DNA of 64,000 nt, taken from NCBI GenBank assembly GCA_016926205.1, contig JAFGPB010000099.1:9414-73413 (forward strand), in the 5' to 3' direction. Below the pieces are notes generated by a model. That model saw only the letters and a program-made list of their open reading frames with translations, was not told where the DNA came from and ran no database searches. Made by a program: the position numbers and the translations under genes. The first letter of the stretch is position 1. Each line of letters opens with the position of its first letter. This DNA comes from Bacteroidales bacterium (GTDB lineage Bacteria; Bacteroidota; Bacteroidia; Bacteroidales; UBA10428). Shown here one piece after another: positions 24,376 to 42,793 of this stretch.

Positions 24376-24521
24376 AACTGTTATTAATCATTTACATCTG
24401 AATATAAGCTTAAACATCTAAATTTTGTTTTTTTCATTTCAGGAATTTATTGTTTTAAAAAAATTACTTTCTTTGTAGGCGGAAATTATATTAATTATTA
24501 TACACTTAAATAAACTTGAAC

Positions 24522-25322
24522 ATGAAAACTTTTTTAGAAGCATTAAGATCGATTTTTGTGATAGCGATCCTTGTACTGGCATTGTTAGCTGGTTACCTGA
24601 TCTGGTCAAAAGTCATGGGAAATCCGGCCAATTTTGAGGGTGGCAATCCGGAAGGTGCGGCTTTGCAGGGAAATTATCTGGGTATCGTCTATAAAGGAGG
24701 GTTCGTAGTACCCGTTCTTATTGCTGTAAACCTGATCGTAATTACCTTTGTGATTGAAAGGTTCATTATGCTTTCAATTGCAAGTGGCCGCGGAAGTCTT
24801 GCAAAGTTTGTTCGCAAATTTCAGAATCTTCTGAATGAAGACAAAATTGAAGAAGCATCCGCACTTTGCGACAAGCAGAGAAGCTCACTGGCCAATGTTA
24901 TGAAAGCCGCTCTGGATAGATACAGGGAACTTCAGAATGACAAAACACTGGAGAACGATCAGAAAGTCGTTTCTTTGCAGAAACATCTCGAAGAAGCAAC
25001 TGCTCTTGAATTGCCCGTGCTTTCAAGGAACATTCCGGTGATCGCCACCATTGTTTCGGCATCAGTGCTTATCGGATTGTTCGGTACTGTGCTGGGTATG
25101 ATCCGCGCATTCGGCGCACTGGCCACAGCAGGTGCTCCCGACGCACTGGCCTTGTCAGAAGGCATCTCCGAAGCACTCGTAAATACCGCTTTCGGTATTC
25201 TGGGATCAGTTCTCGCCCTGATATTCTACAATGTTTTCACAACGAAAATTGACAACATGACCTATAAGATCGATGAGGCTGGTTTCAGTCTGGTACAAAC
25301 ATTTTCTGCTTCGCTTAAATAG
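24522..25322 (+). CDS. exbB: MotA/TolQ/ExbB proton-channel protein
   Basis: Three TM helices and a C-terminal GISEALVNTAFGILGSVLALIFYN. The ORF is open from TTG 24516; ATG at 24522. Confidence 0.9.
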   Translation: MKTFLEALRSIFVIAILVLALLAGYLIWSKVMGNPANFEGGNPEGAALQGNYLGIVYKGGFVVPVLIAVNLIVITFVIERFIMLSIASGRGSLAKFVRKFQNLLNEDKIEEASALCDKQRSSLANVMKAALDRYRELQNDKTLENDQKVVSLQKHLEEATALELPVLSRNIPVIATIVSASVLIGLFGTVLGMIRAFGALATAGAPDALALSEGISEALVNTAFGILGSVLALIFYNVFTTKIDNMTYKIDEAGFSLVQTFSASLK

Positions 25323-25391
25323 GATGATCTTGTTGAGGAGATAAAAACATAAGACAACAAATTGGTTTAAAAAATATTAAAAGAGAAAAAC

Positions 25392-26036
25392 ATGGCAAAA
25401 ATTAAAATGCGTAAATCGGCACCAAGGATCGATATGACTCCTATGGTGGACGTGTTTTTTCTCCTGCTTACATTTTTATTGCTGACGGCGCAGTTCAGGA
25501 AACAGGAATCGGTAACCGTTGACACACCCGGATCGATTTCTGAGACTCCTGCTCCTGAAGGTAAAGTGATGACAATTTCCATCAATTCGGAAGATATGGT
25601 GTTTTTCAATATGGATAACGGGGGAATGGACACGTCCCTGCACCTGAGAGGTCATCTTCTGAGAGAGATCGGAGAATTTTACGACATTGAATTTACCAGG
25701 GAGGAAATTGAACAGTTTGAGATGCTGGAATCATTTTCACTAAACGTGCAGAATCTGAGAAACTGGATCAATGCAGAGAATATGCAGGAACGGGCGGCGT
25801 ATGACGAGGGTATCCCTATGGATTCCACCAAATCGGCAAGCAATCAGCTTTTTCACTGGATCAGGGCTGCGCGTACCGTCGAACCGAATCTGACAGTCGT
25901 TATAAGGGGAGATAAAGATGCAGATTATGATAGGGTTAAAAGTGTTATTGATGTTATGCAGGATAACAATGTCAGGAAGTTCAATCTGATTACAAATCTT
26001 GAAGCTGTTGAAGTTTCACTTGAAGAAAATCTTTAA
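25392..26036 (+). CDS. exbD: ExbD/TolR biopolymer transport protein
   Basis: IDMTPMVDVFFLLLTFLLL N-terminal anchor and a C-terminal V.IRGDKDADYDRVKSVIDVM. Confidence 0.85.
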   Translation: MAKIKMRKSAPRIDMTPMVDVFFLLLTFLLLTAQFRKQESVTVDTPGSISETPAPEGKVMTISINSEDMVFFNMDNGGMDTSLHLRGHLLREIGEFYDIEFTREEIEQFEMLESFSLNVQNLRNWINAENMQERAAYDEGIPMDSTKSASNQLFHWIRAARTVEPNLTVVIRGDKDADYDRVKSVIDVMQDNNVRKFNLITNLEAVEVSLEENL

Positions 26037-26047
26037 AAAATAGTATT

Positions 26048-26716
26048 ATGGCTGAAATAGCAGAAACCGGCGGGCAACAGCATAAAGGTAAAAAACGGGC
26101 GAAAAAGCACAGTACGCACATCGACATGACGCCAATGGTGGATCTTGCCTGTTTATTGATTACTTTTTTTGTGCTGACGTCTGCTTTTACGAAAGCAAAG
26201 GTTATGGAAATCGTCTATCCTGAAAGGCAGGAAGAAGGCGAGGAGTCAAACGCTCCTCAGATATCCGAGAGAAGGGCATTCCATATTATACTGACAGAAA
26301 ATGACAGGATCCTGTGGTATGCGGGTCGTGCCGATCCTACACGGGAAACATTGCCGACATTATATGAGACTGATTATAGTGCTGATGGTATCAGAAGGAT
26401 CCTTCTGGAGCGCAACAAAAGTCTGTTTACCCAGATTCAGGAAATGGAGGAAGCTGTTCTCGAAGGAAGGCTTGATGTTCCGAGGGACAGTATTAACGCA
26501 ATGAGAAGACAGATGATGACAGACGATGATGTAGGACCTATTGTTCTCATAAAAGCCACGGATGGTGTCAGGTATAAGAATATGGTTGATATTGTTGATG
26601 AAATGGCCATTACAAATATTGCGCGCTATTCAATCGTTGATATCAATGAGGTTGAGAAGGTAATGGTACGTCGCTTTTTTGCCGCTGAATCATCTGGAGC
26701 CGCCAGTAGTAATTAA
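26048..26716 (+). CDS. exbD: ExbD/TolR biopolymer transport protein (second paralog)
   Basis: IDMTPMVDLACLLITFFVL anchor and VLIKATDGVRYKNMVDIVDEM. Confidence 0.85.
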   Translation: MAEIAETGGQQHKGKKRAKKHSTHIDMTPMVDLACLLITFFVLTSAFTKAKVMEIVYPERQEEGEESNAPQISERRAFHIILTENDRILWYAGRADPTRETLPTLYETDYSADGIRRILLERNKSLFTQIQEMEEAVLEGRLDVPRDSINAMRRQMMTDDDVGPIVLIKATDGVRYKNMVDIVDEMAITNIARYSIVDINEVEKVMVRRFFAAESSGAASSN

Positions 26717-26734
26717 CATTAATTGATCTAAATT

Positions 26735-27520
26735 ATGGAGAACAAACCGAAAAAAAAGGAGGTCCTGACATTCGATGATATCGTTTTTGAATTCAGAAAT
26801 AAAACCTACGGTTCATACTGGCTGCGCAAAAGATTTGGGCGCTATGTATTCATAGGATTTATTCTGGCTTTGATTGCGGTTTCATCGGCTGTTGCAGTGC
26901 CTTTTATCAAAGCCTTAACCAGGGAGGATGAGGAAATTGTTTTGGCGGAAGAAAAATCCGTTGTTATGGAGACCATTGATGTCGATGATGATCTGGCACC
27001 TCCGCCTCCTCCACCACCTCCTCCCTCCGCAGCAGAGCAAGCAGTCAGTTATACGGCACCCGTTGTGGTTGATACGGTTACACAGGAAGTACAGCTTGCC
27101 ATTGTGGATGATGTCAGGGAAACGATTACCAATGAACCGGTTCCAGAAGAGATCATTGAGGTTGTCGAGGAAGAGGAGTCTGTGATTATTGAAGAGGAAC
27201 CTGCCTTTGTATTTGTCGAGGAACAGGCAACTTTCCGTGGAGGTGATCTGAATGATTTTCGCACATGGGTACAGGAAAATATCATCTATCCTCCGCTTGC
27301 AATTGAAAACAACATATTTGGACGTGTAACTGTTCAGTTTGCCGTAAACTCACAGGGTCAGGTAGTGGATGTTGTCATCCTTCGTGGAGTTGATCCTTTG
27401 CTGGATCAGGAGACCTCACGCGTGATCCTTTCATCACCGAGATGGCAGCCTGCCAGACAGGGAGGTAGAGCAGTGAAGCAGCAGTTTACAATACCTGTTG
27501 TATTTACGCTTACGGAATAA
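26735..27520 (+). CDS. tonB: TonB-family energy transducer
   Basis: N-terminal TM helix, proline tract APPPPPPPPS, and a C-terminal TonB_C (YPPLAIENNIFGRVTVQFAVNSQGQV.DV.ILRGVDPLLDQE...). Confidence 0.9.
   Translation: MENKPKKKEVLTFDDIVFEFRNKTYGSYWLRKRFGRYVFIGFILALIAVSSAVAVPFIKALTREDEEIVLAEEKSVVMETIDVDDDLAPPPPPPPPPSAAEQAVSYTAPVVVDTVTQEVQLAIVDDVRETITNEPVPEEIIEVVEEEESVIIEEEPAFVFVEEQATFRGGDLNDFRTWVQENIIYPPLAIENNIFGRVTVQFAVNSQGQVVDVVILRGVDPLLDQETSRVILSSPRWQPARQGGRAVKQQFTIPVVFTLTE

Positions 27521-27575: not shown

Positions 27576-27577
<2 letters not shown>
27546..27577 (+). terminator. Intrinsic (bidirectional) terminator between convergent tonB and ligA
   Basis: AAAAA-CTGTCAC-cccctatcaga-GTGACAG-TTTTTTTT: a 7-bp perfect stem flanked by an A-tract and a T-tract. 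The T-tract overlaps the ligA stop codon (27576-27578). Confidence 0.7.
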
Positions 27578-29753
<2,176 letters not shown>

Positions 29754-29835: not shown

Positions 29836-29843
29836 TATCTTTG
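29836..29843 (+). promoter_or_regulatory. Candidate -7 box (TATCTTTG) driving the cobalamin riboswitch leader
   Basis: Exact TAnnTTTG match ending 6 nt before the first base of the riboswitch P1 stem (29850). This would put the transcription start right at the aptamer. Confidence 0.5.
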
Positions 29844-29849
29844 TACGGG

Positions 29850-30042
29850 TTATGGTTTCCGGAGACGCTTTCGCATTTCCGGGATAATAGGGAATCAGGT
29901 GTGAATCCTGAACAGTACCCGCTGCTGTAATCTCCTTTATTATTCAGTGTACCTGCAGCCACTGTTGAGGTTCCGGAGATCGATCCGGATGGGAAAACGG
30001 GAAGGCATCACTGAATGGAGTAAGTCAGAAGACCTGCCATAA
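29850..30042 (+). promoter_or_regulatory. Cobalamin (B12) riboswitch
   Basis: P1 pairing TTATGG (29850-29855) with CCATAA (30037-30042). Conserved core AATAGGGAATCAGGTGTGAATCCTGAACAGTACCCGC, GCCACTG (29958-29964), GGGAAGGC, and the B12 box AGTCAGAAGACCTGCC (30023-30038). It sits 32 nt upstream of a TonB-dependent receptor gene. Confidence 0.9.
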
Positions 30043-30074
30043 TTTAAATTTGTTCGGGTTTAAACAATACTGAA

Positions 30075-32021
30075 TTGGCTTTGAAATTATCTGACTTATT
30101 ATTCGTACTATCAACCCTTGTATCGTGTTCCCATGCTTTCTGCCAGATGAAGGAACCAGAAGTGATTTCCATACCGGAAGTCATTGTTACAACAAGCAAT
30201 TCGAAGTTTTTTTCTGAAGACCAGACAATCATTTCTGTCGGTAAAAACGTACTCCCTTTAAGCCGGCAACAAAACCTGGGCATCGTTTTAAGCCATGAAT
30301 CGCCTGCCCTGATACGAAGTTACGGCGGCCAGGGCTCCCTCGTGTCGCTTTCTTTGCACGGAACAGGCTCCAACCATGCCTCGGTAAACTGGAACGGTTT
30401 TCCGGTCAACTCACCTACCACAGGTCAGATCGACCTGTCACTGATACCTTTCGGCTTCATGCAGCATGTAAACATTGTAAATGGCGCTTCGGGTGCGTTG
30501 CATGGCAGCGGCACTTTCGGCGGATTTGTCGAGTTGACAAACGAAGCCGATTGGAACAACAGGTTTTCGGTGAATGTATCGGCAGAGGCAGCCAGTTTTC
30601 ATACACACGGTTATTTTGGATCCATACAGACCGGGGGGGAAAGGTTGCAATATCATCTTTCCCTGCTTGACAGGCGTTCACTGAATGATTTTACTTATAA
30701 GGATATATACCGGTTTGGTTCACCCGAAATCACAGCGGTGCACAATACATTTAAATCGCGTGGCATTATGCAGAACCTTTACCTGAATGCAGGGAACGGA
30801 CATCTGATTGAAGCCGGAACGTGGTTTCAGCATAAGATGAAAGAAACGCCGCCGCTTATGGGGTCTTATAAAGAAAGCAATGCGGTGCAGATAGATCGTA
30901 ATGTCAGGTCATATCTGAATTACCGGAAGACCTTCGGGCGTTCTTTCCTGCTCGTAAAGGCTGCTTACTTTACTGATTTTATGAACTATACCGATAAAAA
31001 CAATGCAACGGACGAAGACTATTCTGTATATTCGAAAATTGACATCAGCAGAATAATGAGCGGAATCGAATACCGTCATACTGTTTCACCGGCTTTCACA
31101 GCGGGCATGGGTGGATCCTATATTTTTAATCATGCTGTTTCCAACAACTACATCAATGAAATACGTGAGCATGAATTCGCATTGTACGGCAATCTTAAGG
31201 TGAAAATGGGAGACTGGATCATCAATACCTCGGCGAGACAGGAGTTTTATGACGGCATAGATCCGGTCTTTCAGTATTCTCTGGGCGTGCGTTTTAAAGC
31301 AAATGAAAACATCATACTGCGGACTAATTTTTCAAATAAATTCAGAAAACCCACATTAAATGAAAAATACTGGAAACCGGGAGGCAACCCGCAATTGAAT
31401 CCCGAACAAGGCTGGGGCGGGGATCTTGCGGCTGAGATCATCATGCTGCAACATGATGACGCAACCCCGATCCTTTCATTAATGCTTTCGGGCTATTACC
31501 AGGGAATTGACAACTGGATACAATGGATTGTACGCGATTCTTTAACACCGGTGGAATACAAGAAGGTTCATTCCCGTGGCGCCGAGGCTGTGATAAATTT
31601 CCGTGTTTTGGCAGGACAGTTCAATATCTCGGGAAATCTGAACTACGGATGCAATTTTGCAACCATAAAGGAAACGTATGACGACAATCAATCCCTGGCA
31701 GGAAATCAGCTTGTTTATATACCGCGGCACGTGGCACGGATGAATCTGAATGTTATGTACAGGAAGTTTACCCTTGGGTGTTATGGTACCATGACAGGGA
31801 AACGGGAGACTGCAGAAAGTTCAGACCCGATCTTACGTTTGCCGGCATACGGACTTGTTGACATCCTGACCGGGTACGACAGACAGTTCGGACAAATCCA
31901 TGCCGGTATTCATTTTCAGATTGAAAACCTGTTTGACAAACAATATGAAGTCATACGTTCCTATGCCATGCCGGGCAGAGCTTTTCATGTTGTTCTGACA
32001 CTCGATTTTGACAAAGAATGA
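30075..32021 (+). CDS. btuB: TonB-dependent outer-membrane receptor, BtuB-like
   Basis: Signal peptide, plug domain (LSHESPALIRSYGGQGSLVSLSLHGTGSNHASVNWNGFPVNSPTTGQIDLSLIP), and a beta-barrel ending in an aromatic-rich terminal strand (RAFHVVLTLDF). It lies downstream of the B12 riboswitch. The signal peptide requires the TTG 30075 start. Confidence 0.85.
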   Translation: MALKLSDLLFVLSTLVSCSHAFCQMKEPEVISIPEVIVTTSNSKFFSEDQTIISVGKNVLPLSRQQNLGIVLSHESPALIRSYGGQGSLVSLSLHGTGSNHASVNWNGFPVNSPTTGQIDLSLIPFGFMQHVNIVNGASGALHGSGTFGGFVELTNEADWNNRFSVNVSAEAASFHTHGYFGSIQTGGERLQYHLSLLDRRSLNDFTYKDIYRFGSPEITAVHNTFKSRGIMQNLYLNAGNGHLIEAGTWFQHKMKETPPLMGSYKESNAVQIDRNVRSYLNYRKTFGRSFLLVKAAYFTDFMNYTDKNNATDEDYSVYSKIDISRIMSGIEYRHTVSPAFTAGMGGSYIFNHAVSNNYINEIREHEFALYGNLKVKMGDWIINTSARQEFYDGIDPVFQYSLGVRFKANENIILRTNFSNKFRKPTLNEKYWKPGGNPQLNPEQGWGGDLAAEIIMLQHDDATPILSLMLSGYYQGIDNWIQWIVRDSLTPVEYKKVHSRGAEAVINFRVLAGQFNISGNLNYGCNFATIKETYDDNQSLAGNQLVYIPRHVARMNLNVMYRKFTLGCYGTMTGKRETAESSDPILRLPAYGLVDILTGYDRQFGQIHAGIHFQIENLFDKQYEVIRSYAMPGRAFHVVLTLDFDKE

Positions 32022-33094
32022 AATTTTATCAACTTATATTATTGTTGCTGCTGACAGTCTTGTTGGCAGCATGTGAGAACGACAATGACGGGCCTGCCGG
32101 CGATACATACGGATCCGGAGTCTATATTATTAATGAAGGATTTTTTTCTGGCAATAACGCAACCATAAGTTACTATGATCAGAATGACGGGACTATGGAC
32201 CATGCAATTTTTTACAACGCAAACGGCCGGGTTATCGGCGATGTTTTACAGTCGTTTACCGTGAATGGAAATACAGGTTTTATTGTGGTCAATAACTCTG
32301 CCAAGGTTGAAGTTGTTGATATGAGTACTTTTGAAACAGTCTCGGAGCCTGTTGCGGCAACATATCCGCGTTATTTTCTGCCGGTAACTGCCGAAAAAGG
32401 ATATCTGACCAACGGGAGCTTTCAGGGTTATGTGCTGATCGTGGATTTGGATGATTTTACTGTAACGGATTCAATACAGGTAGGGTTTGGTCCTGAAACA
32501 TTAATTCAGCTTGAAGACAACATTTTTGTCTGCAACAGTGGCGGATGGGGATCGGACTCTACCATAAGTGTTATTGATCCGGCTACGGATGCAGTGACAG
32601 GTACGATTAAGGTCACTGATACCCCCATGGATATTGTTGCAGATGCAATTGGAAACTTATGGGTGTATTGTAAAGGATATGCAGCGTATGACTGGAATCC
32701 ACCGTATGATCTGATCAGTGAAACGGATGCATACTTGCACCAGGTTGATCCGGCAACCGGAACTATCCTCTGGCAGGGGAAAGTAGGCAAAGCCAGTGAC
32801 TATGTTGTAGTTCCGCCTAAATGTGCCATCTCATCCGACGGACTTACCTTATACTACCTGCGACCTGACGGGGTATATTCGGTTTCTGTTACCAATCCGT
32901 CGATTGCTGATGATCCGCTGATATCCGGCAGTTCTTATTACGGCATTGACGTGAATCCGCAGAACGGGGATCTCTATTTGTGTGAAGCAAGTCTTTCCGG
33001 CAACGGTTCTCTTAAGATATATGACGCAGAAATAAACTCTGTTGCATCTTATGCAGTGGGTATCATGCCGAATGGTGCGATATTTGTTCCCTGA
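32018..33094 (+). CDS. YncE-like beta-propeller surface lipoprotein (same locus position and predicted fold class as BtuG-type corrinoid binders)
   Basis: ATGA overlap with btuB. Lipobox LLAAC. Repeated blade signatures (GFIVVNNSAKVEVVD, GYVLIVDLDDFTV, IFVCNSGG...ISVIDPATDAV, LHQVDPATGTI, DLYLCEA...LKIYD). Confidence 0.7.
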   Translation: MKFYQLILLLLLTVLLAACENDNDGPAGDTYGSGVYIINEGFFSGNNATISYYDQNDGTMDHAIFYNANGRVIGDVLQSFTVNGNTGFIVVNNSAKVEVVDMSTFETVSEPVAATYPRYFLPVTAEKGYLTNGSFQGYVLIVDLDDFTVTDSIQVGFGPETLIQLEDNIFVCNSGGWGSDSTISVIDPATDAVTGTIKVTDTPMDIVADAIGNLWVYCKGYAAYDWNPPYDLISETDAYLHQVDPATGTILWQGKVGKASDYVVVPPKCAISSDGLTLYYLRPDGVYSVSVTNPSIADDPLISGSSYYGIDVNPQNGDLYLCEASLSGNGSLKIYDAEINSVASYAVGIMPNGAIFVP

Positions 33095-33177
33095 TTAAAG
33101 GATGTCGGCACTTCCTTGATCATTTTTCGGTATCTTTCCGTTAAAAACCATATATTCACGGAGTGAATGATGCCGTT

Positions 33178-35325
33178 ATGAGACCAGCAACGTTTGACCG
33201 GGGCATTTTACTGAATTTTTTTTTATTCATGAGTTCATTCGCGGTCTGCCAGGTGTCAAGACCCGGAAAACCATTGCTGCTGAACTATGAGGGAGCAAAA
33301 CAACTTATTGTATATGAGATAGAGGTTCCCGGGAAGGAAGAATCTGCTGAGTCTGCCAAAGAAGTCCATCCGTGGCTGAAACCTGCCGGTTCAGGATTTT
33401 TGGCAGATGTCGGTTTTGACATCTACGAGACCGGCACATGGGATACGCTGCAGGACGGGACAAAAGTCTGGCGTGCAGCCTTTCTGGTCAGCCATGCCAC
33501 AGCCCTGAATGTCGTTTTCAACACATACAGGGTGAACAAGGGTGTAAAGGTATACCTTTATGATTACGAACAGCAGCATGTTCTGGGTGCATTTACAGAT
33601 ATGAACAACAAAACTGCAGGTATGCTCGCCACAGCGCAGCTCTTCAGTGAACTGCTGATCGTAGAGGTACAGGTTCCGTCGTATCTTGATCATGCTGGTG
33701 AGCTGGTCGTTGCACAGATCGGATGCGATTTTTCAGTTGACCGTGAAACAAAAGCATTAAAGGACGGCTGGTATGGCTTATCGGGTGACTGCAATGAGGA
33801 CATCAACTGTTATGACAGCCCCCTTTACCAGCAGCTCAAATATTCTGTCGTCCGCATCGTTTACCAGGGGGGGGAACGGTGTACAGGGGCGCTGCTGAAC
33901 AATACCTCGGAAAACGGACGCAATTACGTGATCACTGCAGAACATTGCATCAGCAATGAAAATATTGCCAATACCTCTGTTTTTTATTTCGATTATGAAA
34001 GTCCGTTTTGTGACGGTCCGGACGGGAACAGCAGCAGGAGCATATCGGGATCGACCATACGTGCGAAAGGTGACTGTCTCGATTTTGTACTGCTGGAATT
34101 GCTGGAACCCGTTCCCTATACTTACCGCCCCTATTATGCGGGATGGGATGTAACGGGCAATGCGCCTCTTTCAGGTGTTGCCATACACCATCCGAAGGGG
34201 GATGTCAAGAAAATCGCTGTTGAAAATCACAGCCTGACCACCGCAACATTCAGCAGTGAATATGTTGAAAATTCACACTGGCTTGTTCACCACTGGGAAT
34301 CAGGTACTACCGAAGCGGGTTCATCGGGAGGACCCTTCTTCGATCAGCATGGCAGGATCACGGGAACACTGACAGGCGGTCAGGCTACCTGCAGTGATCC
34401 GGTCAACGATTATTTTCAAAAGGTGGCAGGCGAATGGGACTTCCTGCGCTTATGGCTGGATCCTGCCGTGGTGCATCCGGGATTCGTTGACGGATATGAT
34501 CCATGGGCGGAATTCTGGAGGAGCGGGGACACGCTTTCCAACATACGGGAATCGGAGCAGCTGGTAACCCTGAAGGACGGCCTGGTATGGGGAAATTTAT
34601 CGGGTCATAATTCTGCATACCTTACGCAGTTTGCCGAGCAATACAGGATCCTTGACAAAAAAACCCTGTTCGGAATATTGCTGAACATATCCCAGAATGA
34701 TGTCACTTCAGCGGCTTCCCACCTCATCGTAAAAGTCTGGCAGGGCGGATCCTTTCCTGAAGAAACAATTTTTGAAAAGGATGTTCTTCTGGCGGATCTG
34801 ATACAGGATGAGGTGAACCTGATCGAGACGGATTCAGCTGTATACGTTGCCGATACATTTTATGTCGGATATGAACTTTTTTATGGTCAGCCCCAGGATA
34901 CATTTGCCGTGCGGATGGCCATCAGCCGCCCCGTTCAGCAGGAAAACACCGCATTTGTTTTCGACGGTACGAAATGGATGTCCATGAGCGATTACACTTC
35001 CGGCATTGTGAATACCTCCTTCAGCATCTTTCCGGTTGTATATGATCAGGATCCTGTGGATCCGGATGATGATCCTGAAGAAGCTGTCAAGGTCTATCCG
35101 AATCCGGTCTCAGATGAATGCTGGATAGATTTCAGGGAAATGACCTCCGGACCGGTAACACTCAGGTTGTACAATTTGTCGGGACAGCCGGTTTACCGGC
35201 AGGATTTCCCGCCTTATCAGACCAAGATTCATCTGCAGACCGGAAATCTCACATCCGGTGTTTATATCCTGAAAGTTACGGGAGATCACGGAACCTCGAC
35301 TGCAAAGCTGATCATATTTAGGTGA
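33178..35325 (+). CDS. Secreted S1-family (trypsin-fold, lysyl-endopeptidase-like) serine protease with a T9SS C-terminal sorting domain
   Basis: Catalytic triad: H in VITAEHC (33943), D in CLDFVLLEL (34081), S in GSSGGPFF (34324). Signal peptide present. The last ~80 aa (35083-35322; KVYPNPVSDE..LRLYNLSGQPVY...SGVYILKV) form a type-A T9SS CTD. The ORF is open from GTG 33163. Confidence 0.85.
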   Translation: MRPATFDRGILLNFFLFMSSFAVCQVSRPGKPLLLNYEGAKQLIVYEIEVPGKEESAESAKEVHPWLKPAGSGFLADVGFDIYETGTWDTLQDGTKVWRAAFLVSHATALNVVFNTYRVNKGVKVYLYDYEQQHVLGAFTDMNNKTAGMLATAQLFSELLIVEVQVPSYLDHAGELVVAQIGCDFSVDRETKALKDGWYGLSGDCNEDINCYDSPLYQQLKYSVVRIVYQGGERCTGALLNNTSENGRNYVITAEHCISNENIANTSVFYFDYESPFCDGPDGNSSRSISGSTIRAKGDCLDFVLLELLEPVPYTYRPYYAGWDVTGNAPLSGVAIHHPKGDVKKIAVENHSLTTATFSSEYVENSHWLVHHWESGTTEAGSSGGPFFDQHGRITGTLTGGQATCSDPVNDYFQKVAGEWDFLRLWLDPAVVHPGFVDGYDPWAEFWRSGDTLSNIRESEQLVTLKDGLVWGNLSGHNSAYLTQFAEQYRILDKKTLFGILLNISQNDVTSAASHLIVKVWQGGSFPEETIFEKDVLLADLIQDEVNLIETDSAVYVADTFYVGYELFYGQPQDTFAVRMAISRPVQQENTAFVFDGTKWMSMSDYTSGIVNTSFSIFPVVYDQDPVDPDDDPEEAVKVYPNPVSDECWIDFREMTSGPVTLRLYNLSGQPVYRQDFPPYQTKIHLQTGNLTSGVYILKVTGDHGTSTAKLIIFR

Positions 35326-35463
35326 TGCAGGTAAAAGGAAGTATGGCTGTGAGGTGGAGTCATGGCTTCCGGCGGCATTGGTGAAAACAGATTTTTCAGG
35401 CTCAAATTGGTAACATTTGTGGCCAAAATCAAGTATAGTATTGTGGTCATAATGATTTTCACA

Positions 35464-38367
35464 ATGTCGGGATACAGGATAACCTTTCTTTTCCTTTTAT
35501 CGGTGATGTTCATGTCCGTTAACGGACAGGACGCTGCTTCATCTGCCTCTCTCAATGTACGGGGCGTTTCTGAACTTGATATGGAACCACTGCCCGGTGC
35601 CACCGCAACACTGTATGAAGGGGGCAAACGTATAAATTCTGTAAGGACGGGTACAGACGGTAGGTTTTCGTTCACACTTGAAGTGAACAGGCAGTATACG
35701 ATCGAAATCTCAAAAGAAGGACTGATCAGCAAGAGGATCAGTTTCAACACCACCATGCCGGATGAAGAAAAAGGCGTATGGACAAGTGAATTTTCCATGG
35801 GACTTGTCAGGTTCTGTGATGGTGTTGATTACAGTATTCTGGATGAACCTGTGGATGTTGTGGAATTTGATGCAGGGAGAAGGGAATTTGTATCCAATAA
35901 GGAATATGTTTCGAGAATGCGACCCAAAATTGAAGATGTGCTCATGGATTATGAAACCTGCATGCTGGACAAGTATGATGCTGCCATGAGAAAGGCCGAT
36001 CAGGCCTATGCCAGGAAAGAGTATCAGGAAGCAATTTCAGAATACAATGCTGCCCTGGAAATTTATCCTGACGAAAAACTGCCGGGTAAACGTATTGCAG
36101 AAATTGAAACGCTGATCGAAGATGAACGGAATACAGATGAAGCATACGACCGGGCAATTGCTCAGGCTGATGCCTTATTCGAACGACAAAAATTTACTGA
36201 AGCACTTTCAAAGTACAGGGAAGCGTCGGCCCTCAAACCCCGGGAGAATTACCCGAAAGAAAAAATCTCAGCCTCTGAGGCAGCGTACTCTGTGCAGCAG
36301 GCCGAACTTAATGAACAGCGCGACAGGGAGGACGCCTATAACCTGACTCTGGCAAAAGCCGGTACGGCATATACACAGAAGGACTACAGCAAGGCACTTG
36401 AATATTATCAGGCTGCGGCTGAAATAAAACCTTCAGAGGCTTTACCGAAAACCAGACTTGAAGAGATTCATGAAATTCTGGAGAAGAAAGCTGCTGAAGA
36501 AGCAAGCATCAGGAAAATTGATGATGCGTACAGAAATGCAATTGCTGAAGCTGAAGCCCTGGTAAACAGCGGGGATTATGATGCCGCGAGGCAGAAGTAC
36601 GCATATGCGCTGACAGTCAAGCCTGCTGAGGCATACCCAAAGACAAAAATGACTGAGATTGACCGTATTGTCGAAGCTCAGGCCCGTGCTGAGGAAAATG
36701 CAAAAAAGGCATTAATGGAGAAGGAGTATCAGTCGGTTCTCACTGAGGCGGACAGGTTGTACCGGAACAAGGACTATGAAGGAGCCAGAGCGGCTTATGT
36801 AAAAGCTCTTGAGGTGAAGCCGTCAGAGCCGTTTCCGAGACAGAGGATCACTGCCATAGAGAATGCTGTGGCTGCGGAACAGGCTGCACAGCAAATGGCT
36901 GTGGAAAAAGAATACCAGGCTGCAATCACTGCCGCGAATGCTGCATTGTCACAGAAAAATTACGTGGAGGCAGTATCATTGCTGAACAGGGCGCTTGAAT
37001 ACAGGCCGGATGATCCTTTTGCAATGAAGAAACTTAATGAAACGGACATCCTGATCGCGGAACAGGAAAGGAACCAGGAGATGCGGCAACATCAGGATGA
37101 ACAGTACAATGATGCCCTGCTGGCCGGCGATCAGTTTCTGGCCCGGAAAGAATATGACAATGCCAGGCAACAATTTCAGAGAGCCATGGAGATAAAACCG
37201 GGAGATCCGGTTGCCCGGAAAATGCTGACACAGATTGAAGAAATCCTTCTGGCCGAGAAGACAGCAGTTCAGAGGGAATTCGAGCTTTCTTATTCCGCAG
37301 CAATGACGAAGGGCGTTGAATCACTCACGAAAAAAAATTATGCGGATGCCGGGGATGCTTTCAGGGAGGCACTTGCCATCAAGCCTGATGATGTCTCTGC
37401 AAAACAAAAACTGAATGAAACTGAAAGGGTGCTTTCTCTTGAAGCACAGCGTCTGGTTGCCGAAACGGAAAAAAAACAGAATTATGATGAGGTTGTTATG
37501 AGGGGTGACGGATTGTTTGCCGGCAAAGAATATTCAGGAGCAAAACAAGCTTATGAGGATGCGCTGCGGATCATTCCCGGTGAACCCTATCCCCGGCAGA
37601 AAATAACAGAAATAAACCAGATCATTGAGGAACAGGATCAGCTGCTGCAGGAGTTGCAGGCGGTAGAAAACACCTATCAAAAAGCCCTCACCTATGCGGA
37701 CAACTATTATGAAATGAAGGATTATGCGGGTGCGCGTGAAGAATATATCAGGGCAGCAGAAATTAAGCCGGATGAAACGTATGCCAGGGAAAGACTTGAA
37801 GAAGTAGAGGAACTGATACGTGTCAGGGAGATTGAACAGGCTGAGGTTTCAAAAAGGGCAGATGCCTACGCTGCGACCATCAGCAAAGCGAATGATTCAT
37901 TCAATAAAAAGAAATACCAGGATGCCAGAAGCAGTTACAATCTTGCACTTCAGCTTATCCCCGGCGATGTTTATGCAAAAGAACAGATCGCCAGAATTGA
38001 CCGCATAACAACGATGTCATCACGGTCACAGTCTTCAGAGGCTGAAGGCCAGGCAACACTATTGTCAGCAACTGCACCGGACAAGCTTGAGTTTTCATCC
38101 GATCAGGAAAAGGACAACTATTTTGAAGAGCTCAGGAGAAGTTACCCGGGAGGAATTACCCTGGAAATTTACCGGGAAGAATACAAAGAGACCCTGCGCT
38201 ATATTGTCATAAGAAATGACATTGTAAATGAATTCAGAAAGCTCAGATTTCTTACCTTTGGCCAGGAGGAGTATTCTGTGAACGGCAAACCCATTACGGA
38301 GATGTATTTCCTTTCACAGATCAAACAACGTGAAGGAGAACAATATAAAGAGATTGTAATGCAATGA
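35464..38367 (+). CDS. Exported CarboxypepD_reg-domain protein with about 11 tandem ~62-aa helical (TPR-like) repeats
   Basis: Signal peptide MSGYRITFLFLLSVMFMSVNGQ. Ig-like domain LNVRGVS...GATATLYEGGKRINSVRTGTDGRFSFTLEVNRQYTIEISKEG (35548-35751). Repeats with consensus Y..A...AD..F..K.Y..A...Y..AL.IKP.E.YP...I.EI. Globular 118-aa tail. The ORF is open from 35362. Confidence 0.85.
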   Translation: MSGYRITFLFLLSVMFMSVNGQDAASSASLNVRGVSELDMEPLPGATATLYEGGKRINSVRTGTDGRFSFTLEVNRQYTIEISKEGLISKRISFNTTMPDEEKGVWTSEFSMGLVRFCDGVDYSILDEPVDVVEFDAGRREFVSNKEYVSRMRPKIEDVLMDYETCMLDKYDAAMRKADQAYARKEYQEAISEYNAALEIYPDEKLPGKRIAEIETLIEDERNTDEAYDRAIAQADALFERQKFTEALSKYREASALKPRENYPKEKISASEAAYSVQQAELNEQRDREDAYNLTLAKAGTAYTQKDYSKALEYYQAAAEIKPSEALPKTRLEEIHEILEKKAAEEASIRKIDDAYRNAIAEAEALVNSGDYDAARQKYAYALTVKPAEAYPKTKMTEIDRIVEAQARAEENAKKALMEKEYQSVLTEADRLYRNKDYEGARAAYVKALEVKPSEPFPRQRITAIENAVAAEQAAQQMAVEKEYQAAITAANAALSQKNYVEAVSLLNRALEYRPDDPFAMKKLNETDILIAEQERNQEMRQHQDEQYNDALLAGDQFLARKEYDNARQQFQRAMEIKPGDPVARKMLTQIEEILLAEKTAVQREFELSYSAAMTKGVESLTKKNYADAGDAFREALAIKPDDVSAKQKLNETERVLSLEAQRLVAETEKKQNYDEVVMRGDGLFAGKEYSGAKQAYEDALRIIPGEPYPRQKITEINQIIEEQDQLLQELQAVENTYQKALTYADNYYEMKDYAGAREEYIRAAEIKPDETYARERLEEVEELIRVREIEQAEVSKRADAYAATISKANDSFNKKKYQDARSSYNLALQLIPGDVYAKEQIARIDRITTMSSRSQSSEAEGQATLLSATAPDKLEFSSDQEKDNYFEELRRSYPGGITLEIYREEYKETLRYIVIRNDIVNEFRKLRFLTFGQEEYSVNGKPITEMYFLSQIKQREGEQYKEIVMQ
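35971..38010 (+). repeat. Coding tandem-repeat array (about 11 units of ~185 nt, diverged at the DNA level) inside the gene above
   Basis: Each unit ends with a (I/V/L)KP-x-(E/D)-x-(Y/F)P-x-x-(K/R)-(I/L)-x-E(I/T) motif. Units were read directly from the translation. Confidence 0.8.
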
Positions 38368-39512
38368 GGTGCTGGTGCATCAGCCTGTCCGTATGGCTCA
38401 TACTGTCAGGCTGCAATAGCAGGGAACCTGGAACAGTAAAGGTAAATACCAGTCGCGGTGCATCTTCCGGCCGGGTCACATATGCAAGCGGTTTCACAAT
38501 TGAGAACAATGAGGACAGAGTGGTGCTCAGCATTAAAAATCCCTGGCAGAATGCTGAGCAGATAAGCTATTCCTACATTCTTTGCAATTCAGCGGAATCA
38601 TCCTCCGCAATCGGCGGAAGGGAAAACCTGATAAAAGTTCCTGTCAGCCGTGTCGTCTGTCTTTCGACCACACACATAGGTTTTATCGATGATCTGGGAA
38701 TGACGGAAAGCATCGTCGGCATCTCGGGAAAGGATCTTGTTGTTAGTCCCGTGATGAGGAAAAGGATAGAAGTGGATGAAATCCGGGATGTGGGGTATGA
38801 TGAAAACATCAATTATGAACTGTTGCTTGAACTGGATCCTGATGTCGTTTTTGCATACGGAGTAACGGGCTCGGTTACCAAAATCCTAAATAAGCTTGAA
38901 GAGTTGAACATACCGTTTGTGCTGGTTGCGGAATACCTTGAACAGAAACCTCTGGCCAAAATGGAATGGATCAAGTTCTTCGCAGAGTTTTACGGAATGG
39001 GAACAGAAGCAGAGCTGCATTTTGATTCTGTCGCTGATGAATACAACAGGCTTAAGGGACTTACATCCCGGATTGAGGAAAGACCTGAGGTAATTCTGGG
39101 ATTGCCCTGGAGGGGTACATGGTATGTTTCCGGGGGACAGAGTTATGTGGCTGAGCTTATCGCGGATGCAGGAGGGAACTATGTATGGAAATCACTGGAT
39201 TACAGGGACAGCAGACCCATGGAGCTTGAGAAGGTATTTGAGAAAGCACTGACAGCTGACTTCTGGCTCAATACAGGAGCTGCCCGGTCAATTGCTGAAA
39301 TTATCAGGACGGACGAGCGTTTTAAGAACCTGCAGGCCTTCAGACGAAACACGATCTATAACAACAATAAACTGTTGAATGATACCGGCGGCAATGCGTA
39401 TTTTGAATCAGGTGTCGCGGAACCCCATGTTATTCTCGCAGATCTTATATCCATTTTACATCCGCAATTGTTACCTTCGCATGAACTAAAGTATTACCAG
39501 AAACTTCAGTAG
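38364..39512 (+). CDS. btuF: ABC-transporter periplasmic binding lipoprotein (class III, BtuF/FhuD-like)
   Basis: The ATG overlaps the preceding stop (ATGA). Lipobox LILSGC. RVVCLSTTHIGFIDDLG and DPDVVFAYG are typical of cobalamin/siderophore binding proteins. The B12 assignment rests on context. Confidence 0.8.
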   Translation: MRCWCISLSVWLILSGCNSREPGTVKVNTSRGASSGRVTYASGFTIENNEDRVVLSIKNPWQNAEQISYSYILCNSAESSSAIGGRENLIKVPVSRVVCLSTTHIGFIDDLGMTESIVGISGKDLVVSPVMRKRIEVDEIRDVGYDENINYELLLELDPDVVFAYGVTGSVTKILNKLEELNIPFVLVAEYLEQKPLAKMEWIKFFAEFYGMGTEAELHFDSVADEYNRLKGLTSRIEERPEVILGLPWRGTWYVSGGQSYVAELIADAGGNYVWKSLDYRDSRPMELEKVFEKALTADFWLNTGAARSIAEIIRTDERFKNLQAFRRNTIYNNNKLLNDTGGNAYFESGVAEPHVILADLISILHPQLLPSHELKYYQKLQ

Positions 39513-39528: not shown

Positions 39529-40581
39529 ATGAAACAAATCCATCCCGGCAAGGGGCCCCATACATCTTTACTGATCATTTTTCTGCTGGCCATTGCAGCC
39601 TTTCTGTTCATGCTCGACCTGGTAACCGGACCGGTGGAAATTCCGTTCAGACTGGTTTTCACCACCCTTTTACATCCCGGATCCGTTGATCCGGTATGGA
39701 AACAGGTGATGTTTGACTTCAGGATCCCCAAAGCCCTTACGGCTGTTGTCGCAGGTTCTGCACTTGCTGTAAGCGGATTGCAGATGCAGACGGTTTTCAG
39801 GAATCCGCTGGCAGGACCCGATGTGCTCGGCATCAGTTCCGGCGCGGGTCTGGGTGTCGCACTTGTGGTTCTTGGATTCGGAAGGATTTTTTCCGGTGGT
39901 GAAATGCTGTACATCAGCGGATGGATTCAAATTGCGGCTGCCTGGGCCGGTGCCGCTGTCGTACTGTTTCTGGTAATGGCGGTATCATTGCGCGTGCGTG
40001 ATATAATGACCATACTGATCCTCGGCATACTATTCGGAAGTGCGGTATCGGCTGTTGTGAGCATTCTTCAGTATTTCAGCGAACAGGCCATGCTGAAGAC
40101 CTATGTCATATGGACCATGGGAAGTCTGGGCAGTCTCACGAATGTGCAGCTGAATGTATTGCTGGTAAGTATTGTCACGGGATTTATTATTTCAGTACTT
40201 TCACTGAAACGAATGAATATATTGCTGACCGGTGAAACGTATGCCCGGAGTCTGGGACTAAACCAGAAATCTTCCAGGATCCTGATCTTTTTATCAACCA
40301 GTATCCTGACCGGAAGCGTAACTGCTTTCTGCGGGCCGATCGGATTTGTCGGAATCGCAGTCCCGCATCTTGCAAGACTTTTGTTCCGCAGTGCCGATCA
40401 TAAAGTGTTGTTTCCGGGTAGTATCCTGCTGGGGGCGATAATGTTGCTGATCAGTGACCTTGTCTCTCAGATGCCGCCGCAGGATACGCATCTTCCTGTG
40501 AATGCAGTCACTGCACTCCTGGGAATTCCCATAGTGATGTGGATTATCTTTAAAAACCAGAGGCTGGTCAGCGTTTCATGA
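39529..40581 (+). CDS. btuC: FecCD-family ABC permease (BtuC-like)
   Basis: About 10 TM helices, RIPKALTAVVAGSALAVSGLQMQTVFRNPLAGPDVLGISSGAG, and FCGPIGFVGIAVPHLARLL. Confidence 0.9.
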   Translation: MKQIHPGKGPHTSLLIIFLLAIAAFLFMLDLVTGPVEIPFRLVFTTLLHPGSVDPVWKQVMFDFRIPKALTAVVAGSALAVSGLQMQTVFRNPLAGPDVLGISSGAGLGVALVVLGFGRIFSGGEMLYISGWIQIAAAWAGAAVVLFLVMAVSLRVRDIMTILILGILFGSAVSAVVSILQYFSEQAMLKTYVIWTMGSLGSLTNVQLNVLLVSIVTGFIISVLSLKRMNILLTGETYARSLGLNQKSSRILIFLSTSILTGSVTAFCGPIGFVGIAVPHLARLLFRSADHKVLFPGSILLGAIMLLISDLVSQMPPQDTHLPVNAVTALLGIPIVMWIIFKNQRLVSVS

Positions 40582-40597: not shown

Positions 40598-41623
40598 ATG
40601 GACCATAAGAACAAGAAGAATATTATAGATCTTAAAGAACTTATGATCGGTTACCGTACTCAGCACACACGGACTTCATTTGCCTACGGACCCATCAACC
40701 TGAGCATTCGCTCCGGTGACATGATTGCATTGATTGGTCGCAACGGCATTGGTAAAAGCTCATTATTGCGCACCATAGCACAGCTGCAAAATCCTTTGGG
40801 AGGGAACGTCCGCTTGTTTGGGAAGGAGAGCGACCGTTATGGCAGACGGGAACTGGCACAGATCATAAGTTTTGTATCGACTGAAATTGTCAGCATTCAG
40901 AACCTGAAGGTGTATGATCTGATTTCCCTGGGACGGGCTCCTTATACGAACTGGCTGGGGAAGCTGATGGATCATGACCATTCGGGGATTCAGTCAGCAC
41001 TTGACAAGGTGAAAATCCCGCATCTGGGGGCAAAATTCATGCACCAGCTCAGCGATGGTGAACGGCAAAAGGTCATGATTGCCAGAGCACTTGCACAGGA
41101 TACACCGGTTATCATACTGGATGAGCCCACGGCATTCCTTGATCTGCCCTCCCGGTATGAAGTACTGCGGTTGTTGAACGAACTCTCAATCCGGGAGGGA
41201 AAAACAATTCTGTTCTCAACGCATGATCTTGATATTGCAATTCATGAAGCGGATATCATCTGGCTGATGATCAGTGAAGGTATTACAGAAGGGGCACCGG
41301 AGGATTTGCTTTTTAAGAAACAATTTCATAAATTGTTCTTAAATTCATGTCTGGAATACGACCAGCAGTCGGATGGTTTCAGATTGCAAAAAGGGAGCCA
41401 AAAGAGTATCGGATTGAAAGGGACGGAGGAATCCGTGCACTTCACTGGAAAAGCTTTAAGAAGAATAGGATTTCAGGTGGATGGAACAAATAAGGGCATC
41501 GGCAGGATTGAAATTGTATCCGAAGGCGGAAAAATTGTCTGGATTCTGGATACAGGTGCTGAAAAGCAGGTATTTCAATCAATTTATGAGCTGACGGATT
41601 ATTTAAAATACAACTGTAAATAA
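40598..41623 (+). CDS. btuD: ABC ATPase (BtuD/FepC-like) with a ~85-aa C-terminal extension
   Basis: Walker A GRNGIGKSSLL, signature LSDGERQKV, Walker B VIILDEPTAFLD, and H-loop STHD. The extra C-terminal domain starts at about GFRLQKGSQ. Confidence 0.9.
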   Translation: MDHKNKKNIIDLKELMIGYRTQHTRTSFAYGPINLSIRSGDMIALIGRNGIGKSSLLRTIAQLQNPLGGNVRLFGKESDRYGRRELAQIISFVSTEIVSIQNLKVYDLISLGRAPYTNWLGKLMDHDHSGIQSALDKVKIPHLGAKFMHQLSDGERQKVMIARALAQDTPVIILDEPTAFLDLPSRYEVLRLLNELSIREGKTILFSTHDLDIAIHEADIIWLMISEGITEGAPEDLLFKKQFHKLFLNSCLEYDQQSDGFRLQKGSQKSIGLKGTEESVHFTGKALRRIGFQVDGTNKGIGRIEIVSEGGKIVWILDTGAEKQVFQSIYELTDYLKYNCK

Positions 41624-41629: not shown

Positions 41630-41842
41630 ATGGAAACAATGATGAAAAAAGTCGTGTCCTATATTCTGATAGCAATGGTTCTTATATTTACCGTTGTCGC
41701 AATACTGGGTATATGGGATATCATTGATCTGAGGAATGTTATGATGAATGCGATCTTAACACTCATCATCATATTTGCGGCATCGGCGGTGATCCTGTTT
41801 ATATATACCGTTTTTATGAGGGATACAGAAAGAAAGGATTAA
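41630..41842 (+). CDS. Small two-TM membrane protein
   Basis: 70 aa with two hydrophobic helices, starting 6 nt after the ATPase gene. No family recognised. Confidence 0.5.
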   Translation: METMMKKVVSYILIAMVLIFTVVAILGIWDIIDLRNVMMNAILTLIIIFAASAVILFIYTVFMRDTERKD

Positions 41843-41878: not shown

Positions 41879-42793
41879 ATGCTGTCAATTCTGATTCCTG
41901 TTTATAATTTCAGCATTGTATCGCTTGTCACTGAGCTGCACCGTCAGTCCCTGAAAGCTGAAGTCCCTTTTGAGATTGTCGTTCTGGATGATTGTTCGTC
42001 AGAATTGCTGCGCGATCAGAACAAAGGTGTGCGCAAACTGAAGCATGTCCGTTTCATTGAGCTTGAAAAGAACATCGGACGGGCCCGCATCCGGAACAGG
42101 CTTGCGGACATGGCAAAGTATTCATCACTTCTTTTTATGGATTGTGATTCCGAGGTTCCGGACGATCAATATATTGACAGGTACCTGCCTTATGTCGGTC
42201 ATGAAGTTGTCGTTTGCGGGGGTCGGGCATACAAGCCTGAGCAGCCCGAGGAACCTGAATACTTTCTGAGGTGGCTCTACGGACTGAGCCGCGAACAGAT
42301 ACCTGCAAAAATCAGGGCCAAACATCCATACAGGTCCTTTATGACCAACAATTTCATGATCCCCAGGTCAATTCTGATGCAGATTCAGTTTGATGAAAGT
42401 ATTGTAAAATACGGCCATGAAGATACCCTTTTCGGTCTTGAACTAAAAAAAAGAAACATTCCCATAGTGCATATTCAGAATCCCCTGATCCACATAGGAG
42501 TTGAAGCTGCCGGTGAGTTTCTAATCAAGATGAGTGAAAGCATTGAAAATCTGGTGAAACTGGTCAAATCCGGCAAGATTGACAAAAAACATTATGATGA
42601 TGTCAGAATCCTGAGGTATTATGCTTTCCTGAAGAGATACGGACTGACAAAAACCTTCCTGAATATTTTTGACGGATTGTCCAATGCGTTGTACCGTAAC
42701 ATGTCAGGCAACAATCCAAGTCTTTTTCTCTTCAGCATATACAAACTTACACTCTTTTGCAGAGCGATGAACAAGAAAGATCAGGAAAGCTGA
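41879..42793 (+). CDS. Family-2 glycosyltransferase
   Basis: LSILIPVYNF....L...L........EIVVLDDCS, and a later DCD acidic motif. Confidence 0.8.
   Translation: MLSILIPVYNFSIVSLVTELHRQSLKAEVPFEIVVLDDCSSELLRDQNKGVRKLKHVRFIELEKNIGRARIRNRLADMAKYSSLLFMDCDSEVPDDQYIDRYLPYVGHEVVVCGGRAYKPEQPEEPEYFLRWLYGLSREQIPAKIRAKHPYRSFMTNNFMIPRSILMQIQFDESIVKYGHEDTLFGLELKKRNIPIVHIQNPLIHIGVEAAGEFLIKMSESIENLVKLVKSGKIDKKHYDDVRILRYYAFLKRYGLTKTFLNIFDGLSNALYRNMSGNNPSLFLFSIYKLTLFCRAMNKKDQES

Follow-up and report, generated by a model that had tools for sequence, protein, structure and literature searches.

A gene for a protease with a type IX secretion sorting domain is conserved as an accessory to B12 uptake operons, mostly in environmental Bacteroidia

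Within a 64,000 bp stretch of a Bacteroidales genome (GenBank assembly GCA_016926205.1, contig JAFGPB010000099.1, positions 9,414 to 73,413 of the forward strand), the gene for a putative serine protease lies inside a cluster of cobalamin (vitamin B12) uptake genes; the whole 64-kb stretch is referred to here as the window. We find that the protease gene has been conserved as an accessory within B12 uptake operons, mostly in environmental Bacteroidia, and that the linkage is old, widespread, and specific to an orthogroup of proteins of about 720 residues, though not universal. On sequence and fold comparison it is a new member of the family of lysyl endopeptidase LysC and Achromobacter protease I (API), with a Bacteroidota type IX secretion system (T9SS) architecture like that of PepK, and we are confident that it is an exported Lys-specific protease. 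A real functional tie between the protease and B12 acquisition is probable, and the narrower proposal that it may specifically liberate corrinoids from proteins, which draws on gene context, is put forward tentatively. No report of a protease in Bacteroidota B12 loci was found in the full-text literature searched, which covers few of the subscription journals. We regard the locus as a known uptake system with a conserved, previously unremarked enzymatic accessory component.

The protease open reading frame (ORF; 33163-35325, + strand) encodes 720 residues when read from a GTG codon, and residues are numbered here in that form. An identical public protein, annotated as 'T9SS type A sorting domain-containing protein' from a Bacteroidales metagenome-assembled genome (MAG), has 715 residues and starts at the ATG at 33178. 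A probable signal peptide and an N-terminal pro-type domain precede the LysC/API-type catalytic domain, behind which come a lectin-like jelly-roll and, last, the type A sorting domain for the T9SS, and five parts are visible in an AlphaFold2 model built with 115 homologues in the alignment (mean predicted local distance difference test score, pLDDT, of 86). The features of the gene are as follows.

33178..35325, + strand: protease coding sequence, LysC-family serine endopeptidase with T9SS sorting domain (715 residues from the ATG; listed ORF from the GTG at 33163)
33178..33249, + strand: probable Sec signal peptide, M6 to C29, followed by Gln30 (hydrophobic stretch and AlphaFold2 helix)
33259..33732, + strand: N-terminal beta-sandwich domain, residues 33-190, probable pro-domain (pLDDT 85-94)
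33733..33774, + strand: flexible linker with Lys, residues 191-204 (...RETKALKDGWY), candidate pro-domain cleavage site (low pLDDT)
33775..34518, + strand: catalytic domain, residues 205-452 (phmmer alignment to 4nsv, Foldseek to 4nsy)
33943-33945, 34081-34083, 34324-34326 and 34408-34410, + strand: codons of the catalytic residues His261, Asp307 and Ser388 and of the S1-pocket residue Asp416 (alignment to 4nsv)
34519..35073, + strand: lectin-like beta jelly-roll, residues 453-637 (separate AlphaFold2 model, pLDDT 92)
35083..35322, + strand: type A T9SS C-terminal sorting domain (PF18962, TIGR04183)

An initial annotation, made from the DNA alone, had described an S1 catalytic triad in canonical order, and the three residues are indeed present as in-frame codons: H261 (CAT at 33943, within VITAEHC), D307 (GAT at 34081, within DFVLLEL), and S388 (TCG at 34324, within GSSGGP). 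Profile searches with Pfam and NCBIfam matched all of the domains expected from that description (Trypsin_2, Trypsin, Por_Secre_tail, and TIGR04183), with Trypsin_2 at E = 3.4e-8 over residues 240-401 and Trypsin at E = 1e-5. In a sequence search of the PDB, residues 205-447 match the lysyl endopeptidases 4nsv and 4nsy (Lysobacter LysC) and 1arb (API) with E values of 1e-29 to 1e-27, and the catalytic part of the model superposes on 4nsy in Foldseek with a TM-score of 0.85, an rmsd of 2.3 Å, and 32% identity. The phmmer alignment pairs H57, D113, S194, and D225 of 4nsv with H261, D307, S388, and D416, the last of which (in VNDYF) stands opposite Asp225 of API (in RSDYY), such that the S1-pocket Asp is present; we take Asp225, at the base of the S1 pocket, to be the residue conferring Lys specificity. 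All four residues are unchanged in each of 75 full-length relatives from other genomes. The six cysteines of API, which pair into three disulfides (Cys6, 12, 36, 58, 80, and 216), have counterparts at C210, C216, C240, C262, C283, and C410; four of these (C210, C216, C283, C410) are invariant among the 75 relatives, of which 64-65 also retain the C240/C262 pair. The presence of all the protease features that had been described is far beyond chance.

The protease thus resembles API and LysC (family S1, EC 3.4.21.50) in fold, triad, the equivalent of Asp225, and all six cysteine positions, and the homologous region starts at the equivalent of their mature N-terminus. The API precursor has N- and C-terminal extensions, as the window protease does. 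Unlike these enzymes, the window protease has a jelly-roll specific to its family and a type A sorting domain for the T9SS, and its gene lies within a B12 uptake operon; no proteobacterial lysyl endopeptidase is known to be encoded in one.

A Sec signal peptide is probably present, as indicated by a hydrophobic N-terminus, a model helix at residues 4-18 of the 715-residue form, and a Gln directly after the signal region in 71 of 75 relatives. The initial annotation also noted non-catalytic regions of about 200 and 250 residues on either side of the catalytic domain, and both are there as described, although the first is a generic pro-type domain and not a B12-specific one. Profile searches with residues 33-203 gave no match in the PDB or in the copy of Pfam searched; a precomputed Pfam table places PF27052 (Lysyl_endopep_N) on one paralogue. 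The profile of this N-domain does match 5310 cluster representatives among 1.84 billion proteins, always N-terminally (starting at about residues 25-60) and in proteins of 500-2000 residues. In eight carriers examined with Pfam, Trypsin_2 follows the N-domain directly in six and a T9SS sorting domain ends the protein in seven, while the modules between the trypsin part and the end vary (none, MAM, Big_2 with CBM6 and fn3, PKD with GEVED, CUB, and others). GLSGDCN at residue 205, directly past the linker, is the counterpart in the alignment of GVSGSCN, with which mature LysC/API begins, and the linker itself has pLDDT values below 50 at model residues 189-194 and at least one Lys in 71 of 75 relatives. 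Because homology to mature LysC begins right behind a linker in which Lys is so often kept, we read the N-domain as a pro-domain, and it is probably the general pro-domain of a large Bacteroidota family of LysC-like proteases and not a part specific to B12.

At the other end of the protein, the type A T9SS domain that had been proposed at 35083-35322 is confirmed by both Por_Secre_tail (PF18962; E = 4.3e-13, 49.8 bits against a cut-off of 27, residues 644-718) and TIGR04183 in NCBIfam (47.3 bits against a cut-off of 23). A sorting domain is found in 80 of 81 family proteins from the loci, and the remaining one is cut by a contig end. T9SS cargo of type A cross the outer membrane and are then attached to the surface or released. 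The jelly-roll is the part that sets the ~720-residue orthogroup apart from the paralogues examined, which bear other C-terminal domains. No Pfam or PDB sequence match was obtained for residues 450-637 in profile searches; its closest PDB folds by Foldseek are receptor-binding modules of phage baseplates and the lectin-like domain of the Clostridioides difficile surface protease Cwp84, with TM-scores, normalised to the query, of about 0.55-0.6.

The placement of the protease inside a B12 locus, also part of the initial annotation, is borne out by homologues of known uptake genes on the same strand. They form one cluster in the order cobalamin riboswitch, btuB, btuG, protease, tetratricopeptide repeat (TPR) protein, btuF, btuC, btuD, with spacings from btuB to btuD of -4 to 83 nt.

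29836..30055, + strand: cobalamin riboswitch aptamer (Rfam RF00174, 100.7 bits, E = 5e-24)
30075..32021, + strand: btuB, TonB-dependent B12 receptor (Plug and TonB_dep_Rec_b-barrel; best NCBIfam match TonB-B12)
32018..33094, + strand: btuG, surface beta-propeller B12-binding lipoprotein (PF16819 DUF5074, E = 1e-22; 4-nt overlap with btuB)
35362..38367, + strand: TPR protein, 1001 residues, with an N-terminal CarboxypepD_reg-like domain (Pfam)
38364..39512, + strand: btuF-like periplasmic binding lipoprotein (Peripla_BP_2, E = 3.7e-22; 4-nt overlap with the TPR gene)
39529..40581, + strand: btuC-like permease (FecCD, E = 1e-73; best NCBIfam match BtuC, E = 8e-57)
40598..41623, + strand: btuD-like ABC ATPase (ABC_tran, E = 2e-29; NCBIfam corrinoid/FecE-type ATPases)

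The best PDB matches of the btuB product are chains of Bacteroides thetaiotaomicron BtuB (8bmx_C, 8p98_A, and 8blw_A). Those of the btuG product, which has the lipobox LLAAC followed by an acidic stretch (ENDND), include 8bmx_D and the BtuG2 entries 8bmy and 8bmz (E values of 1e-31 to 1e-33), of which 8BMZ is BtuG2 with adenosylcobalamin (PMC13616437).

The 5' end of the riboswitch is a TAnnTTTG box (TATCTTTG at 29836, 29836-29843), the -7 promoter motif of Bacteroidota. The box is invariant at the start of seven aligned riboswitches, from the window and from L001, L011, L018, L045, L046, and L075 (L-numbers label the loci of relatives), and since all seven matches begin with it, the Rfam match appears to start at or beside the promoter itself. 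A motif scan found no such box in the gap between btuG and the protease gene or in that between the protease and TPR genes, and neither gap has a terminator-like match, such matches being no commoner than chance over the scanned region. Because neither gap flanking the protease gene holds a TAnnTTTG box or a terminator-like hairpin, the gene is most likely co-transcribed with btuB, btuG, and btuFCD from the riboswitch promoter, and would thus be made when B12 is scarce. The scan for sigma-70 promoters and terminators gave counts equal to chance, with a consensus unsuited to Bacteroidota, and served here only to show that the gaps lack a terminator-like match.

A position downstream of a cobalamin riboswitch would also be expected if the protease were part of a B12-sparing response, in which a stalled B12-dependent methionine synthase is compensated by a derepressed secreted protease that supplies peptides or methionine. 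Riboswitches often govern B12-independent bypass genes, and Bacteroides without MetE require B12 or methionine. However, the protease gene is wedged among uptake components and translationally coupled to btuF and does not form a riboswitch unit of its own, the cluster contains neither a peptide transporter nor a methionine gene, and a Lys-specific endopeptidase is a poor source of methionine, all of which make this explanation quite improbable.

Orthologues were surveyed by a pattern-plus-tblastn scan of one genome per GTDB species, which gave 80 loci with full-length relatives at 29-50% identity. Neighbours were scored by tblastn with the window genes and by Pfam on selected ORFs, and riboswitches by Rfam and by an nhmmer profile built from seven Rfam-confirmed sequences. 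The loci fall into the following groups.

48 of 80 loci: protease flanked directly, on the same strand, by B12-uptake genes (btuB, btuG, DUF4465, or btuFCD)
4 of 80 loci: B12 genes close by on the opposite strand
4 of 80 loci: TPR partner alone detected, two of these with short flanks
24 of 80 loci: stand-alone protease

Among the linked loci there are at least four operon layouts, in which P denotes the protease and RS the cobalamin riboswitch.

RS-btuB-btuG-P-(TPR)-btuF-btuC-btuD: the commonest among linked loci
RS-DUF4465-P-btuFCD: L060 and L074
RS-DUF4465-(343-residue T9SS protein)-btuB-btuG-P-btuFCD: L013, L052, and L075
P-btuFCD alone: Prolixibacter, Mariniphaga, and others

Additional relatives on long metagenome contigs have P-TPR-btuFCD in five of five cases, with btuB-btuG upstream in four; together with the 48 species-level loci, these show that orthologues do not lie consistently outside B12 loci, an outcome that would have spoken against the initial annotation. 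A same-strand upstream riboswitch is present in 31 of the 80 loci and in the metagenome locus L082. Between the protease stop codon and the gene that follows (btuF or TPR) the median distance is 6 nt, with a 4-nt overlap in 12 loci. Linked members are scattered across the whole neighbour-joining tree of the family, and their records are labelled Bacteroidales, Rikenellaceae, Porphyromonadaceae, Bacteroidaceae, Prolixibacteraceae, Marinilabiliales, Salinivirgaceae, and 'Chlorobiota'. Five paralogues with the same N-domain and catalytic module but different C-terminal domains were examined, and none lies beside B12 genes, three of those contigs being short.

These data bear on whether the protease is simply a general nutritional or housekeeping T9SS enzyme that has no role specific to B12 and owes its place beside btu genes to inherited synteny. 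Its N-domain and LysC module belong to a very large family with many C-terminal architectures, the jelly-roll has a generic lectin-like fold, and both the stand-alone orthologues and the lack of a riboswitch at some linked operons are as this explanation would have it. Set against this, linkage persists down to about 30% identity and in several families, paralogues of other architecture are unlinked, and we estimate the likelihood of chance adjacency to one of the few btu loci in a genome at well under 1% per gene. The survival of the linkage through rearranged layouts, together with overlaps of the translational-coupling type, weakens the explanation most, and we consider it improbable.

Control of the protease by B12 is not universal, given that 24 of the 80 orthologues stand alone and that one clade has P-btuFCD operons with no detectable riboswitch. 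For six such operons (L033, L034, L035, L048, L051, and L076), no riboswitch was found within 10 kb using Rfam gathering thresholds or nhmmer with E values up to 10; L035 comes from the cultured Prolixibacter bellariivorans ATCC BAA-1284. The upstream neighbours of the riboswitch-less operons vary. Two close relatives have an opposite-strand gene for a GFO_IDH_MocA oxidoreductase between btuG and the protease gene (L082, 7571-8893, - strand; L089, 6563-7930, - strand), and the protease-TPR-btuFCD genes there must have their own promoter. No second riboswitch was found by nhmmer in L082, the one of these two loci that was scanned.

We propose that the protease would act at the cell surface or beyond it to make bound corrinoids available. 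It would be produced under B12 limitation through the riboswitch-led operon, exported by Sec, and carried across the outer membrane by the T9SS by way of its type A C-terminal domain. Activation would probably follow by removal of the N-terminal pro-domain at the linker Lys, leaving a mature enzyme either attached to the surface or released. The enzyme would then cut extracellular proteins that hold corrinoids, such as the holo-enzymes of lysed cells and the high-affinity binders of competitors, after which BtuG would take up the freed cofactor and hand it on to BtuB, with BtuFCD completing its import. The parts of this scheme that we infer are the B12-dependent expression, the cleavage of the pro-domain, the substrate, and the release of corrinoid.

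Three points make liberation of this kind attractive. The affinity of Bacteroidota surface binders for B12 is femtomolar to picomolar (PMC6143338, PMC13616437), and wherever binding is that tight, proteolysis would be one of few routes by which the cofactor could be released. B12 operons of relatives also encode other T9SS-sorted proteins, among them a fusion of a DUF4465 B12-binding domain to Por_Secre_tail (L071, 5261-6454) and a 343-residue protein in which a sorting domain is the sole recognisable part (L013, 5834-6865). Lastly, the same logic is proven for heme, in that the Lys-gingipain Kgp degrades hemoproteins and releases heme for the lipoprotein HmuY and the TonB-dependent HmuR (PMC12094164). 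T9SS-sorted proteins other than the protease are also seen in the B12 operons of L052, L075, and L042, and in environmental Bacteroidota such cargo may take the place of lipoproteins in capturing B12.

As to substrates, the host carriers suggested at first (intrinsic factor, haptocorrin, and transcobalamin) are improbable, since the relatives are mostly environmental MAGs and isolates by record title, coming mainly from springs, sediments, bioreactors, vents, and soils; microbial corrinoid proteins or the binders of competitors are more likely. In its strongest form, the proposal is that a T9SS Lys-specific protease induced by B12 starvation would destroy the corrinoid proteins of others, including the femtomolar BtuG- and DUF4465-type binders of competitors, and so pirate the cofactor for its own BtuG-BtuB-BtuFCD in many environmental Bacteroidia. 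We offer this version as speculation, with less conviction than corrinoid liberation in general.

Several observations weigh against corrinoid liberation. The 24 unlinked orthologues stand in unrelated contexts, and the Prolixibacteraceae/Mariniphaga P-btuFCD operons lack a riboswitch. The tightest partner of the protease gene is btuF, encoding a periplasmic protein, and not the surface components btuB or btuG, which an extracellular role does not explain. In B. thetaiotaomicron, BtuG strips B12 from intrinsic factor without proteolysis (PMC6143338), and a protease is therefore not obligatory. Finally, Pfam, PDB, Foldseek, and hhalign searches with the accessory domains revealed neither a known domain for binding corrinoids nor a feature for recognising carriers, and the suggestion of a corrinoid-binding fold in the non-catalytic regions is unsupported: hhalign against DUF4465 gave probabilities of 0.3% for the jelly-roll and 0.1% for the N-domain, and no B12-binding protein is among the top 50 Foldseek PDB matches of the jelly-roll.

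The same comparisons tell against the protease acting chiefly as a surface corrinoid binder through its accessory domains, with proteolysis secondary. Beta jelly-rolls are among the known B12 binders of such loci (DUF4465; PMC13398666) and the middle domain here is a jelly-roll, but neither DUF4465 by hhalign nor any other B12 binder among the top 50 Foldseek matches is recovered with it, and the catalytic residues are invariant in all 75 relatives, making a binding role very improbable. The motif WGxxSGHNS of the jelly-roll was considered as a B12 His-on motif and dropped, because only 29 of 51 linked members retain its His, the sole conserved one of the domain. B12-linked and unlinked members of the family are not told apart by any alignment column.

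A different target for the protease would be the cell's own B12-capture proteins (BtuG, DUF4465, and T9SS-sorted binders), which it could mature or shed as soluble scavengers. There is precedent in Porphyromonas gingivalis, where limited proteolysis by Kgp frees the hemophore HmuY from the cell surface (PMC12094164); BtuG2 is also present in the B. thetaiotaomicron supernatant (PMC6143338), and in many loci the protease gene is directly behind a btuG or DUF4465 gene. Nonetheless, P-btuFCD operons exist without a neighbouring surface binder and the B. thetaiotaomicron systems function without such a protease, and we regard processing of the cell's own proteins as unlikely.

Comparison with known systems places the liberation proposal among related arrangements. 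PepK of P. gingivalis (PGN_1416/PG0553) is a T9SS-secreted Lys-specific serine endopeptidase anchored by anionic lipopolysaccharide (A-LPS) at the cell surface (PMC4674972), and by that published description the window protease resembles it as a Bacteroidota T9SS Lys-specific serine endopeptidase. Unlike the window protease, PepK is presented as a cargo linked to virulence and activated through Rgp, with no B12 link reported. The Kgp-HmuY-HmuR system is the nearest mechanistic parallel, combining a T9SS Lys-specific protease with a surface lipoprotein and a TonB-dependent transporter for another tetrapyrrole. Kgp, however, is a C25 cysteine protease of unrelated fold that is encoded outside the hmu operon, whereas the window enzyme is an S1 serine protease with a putative substrate and is encoded inside the uptake operon; membership of the C25 gingipain type is ruled out by the S1 catalytic domain, and the likeness is one of functional logic only.

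Another close counterpart is the BtuB-BtuG system of B. thetaiotaomicron with its accessory binders BtuH, BtuJ, and BtuK, whose loci are headed by a riboswitch and contain btuB, btuG (PF16819), and btuFCD together with additional accessory genes for the surface (PMC6143338, PMC13616437, PMC13398666). The window locus is likewise riboswitch-led, and its BtuB and BtuG are clear homologues. The accessories described in B. thetaiotaomicron are non-enzymatic B12-binding lipoproteins, whereas those in the window are a T9SS-sorted protease and a TPR protein, and the protease has no domain homologous to the known surface binders (the BtuG propeller, DUF4465 of BtuH/BtuJ, and BtuK) by Pfam, PDB, hhalign, or Foldseek. 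In mammals, haptocorrin is degraded by host enzymes and B12 then passes to intrinsic factor (PMC6143338), so that proteolysis there likewise precedes hand-over to the next high-affinity binder, although this is host digestion by unrelated proteins and is an analogy only.

Corrinoids are traded and contested in microbial communities, and current models of Bacteroidota uptake, based on B. thetaiotaomicron, consist of binders and transporters only. A 2026 review of the B. thetaiotaomicron cobamide relay contains 'protease' once, in the title of a reference, and never mentions the T9SS (PMC13616437), and an analysis of DUF4465 genome neighbourhoods describes transporters and propellers only (PMC13398666); the one paper that kept recurring in the literature searches, on the F. 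psychrophilum transcriptome, proved irrelevant. Several surface binders hold B12 very tightly, with BtuG2 binding at femtomolar affinity, and much of the environmental pool may therefore be protein-bound. If corrinoid liberation is correct, it would add an enzymatic step to uptake models, help to explain how auxotrophs in sediments and digesters gain access to protein-bound corrinoids, give the T9SS a role in vitamin acquisition, and provide a B12 counterpart of gingipain-driven heme piracy whose protease gene is part of the uptake operon. The proposal lends itself to direct testing, as P. bellariivorans is a cultured carrier and the enzyme family is easily assayed.

The TPR gene occupies the same slot between the protease gene and btuF in L001-L008, L081, L082, and L089-L091, and does so in every member of the window clade. 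Besides a signal peptide and the CarboxypepD_reg-like domain, its product has roughly twelve TPRs and ends in a distinct region of about 100 residues; in relatives it is 1000-1220 residues long. The protease-TPR pair is kept where btuFCD is missing (L014 and L009). Clusters of several T9SS-sorted proteases, comprising two LysC-like paralogues with Big_2/CBM6 and an M6 peptidase, lie beside PorP/SprF genes and away from B12 loci (L085, 8001-18991; L070; L080).

Downstream of btuD in the window is one further neighbour.

41879..42793, + strand: GT2 glycosyltransferase (Pfam; weak HfsG-like match)

The next intergenic TAnnTTTG box on the + strand (TAACTTTG at 41840) lies ahead of this gene, which probably has its own promoter there, and its membership of the B12 system is doubtful. 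It is a conserved neighbour downstream of btuD in many loci. It is also found a few kb downstream of the protease in the unlinked L026, L032, and L066, and in L069, which has RS-btuB-btuG upstream and no btuFCD; its retention in these four loci fits loss of btuFCD from an ancestral P-btuFCD-GT2 arrangement. Directly past it, at 42866-46851 on the - strand, are a GH15/trehalase-like gene and a fused trehalose-6-phosphate synthase/phosphatase (GT20 and Trehalose_PPase). Upstream of the B12 operon is an ExbB-ExbD-ExbD-TonB set (24516-27520, + strand), with only ligA (27576-29735, - strand) between, and this set may be the energising TonB complex for the window BtuB. The order ExbD-ExbD-TonB-ligA(-)-btuB is repeated in L082, L090, and L091.

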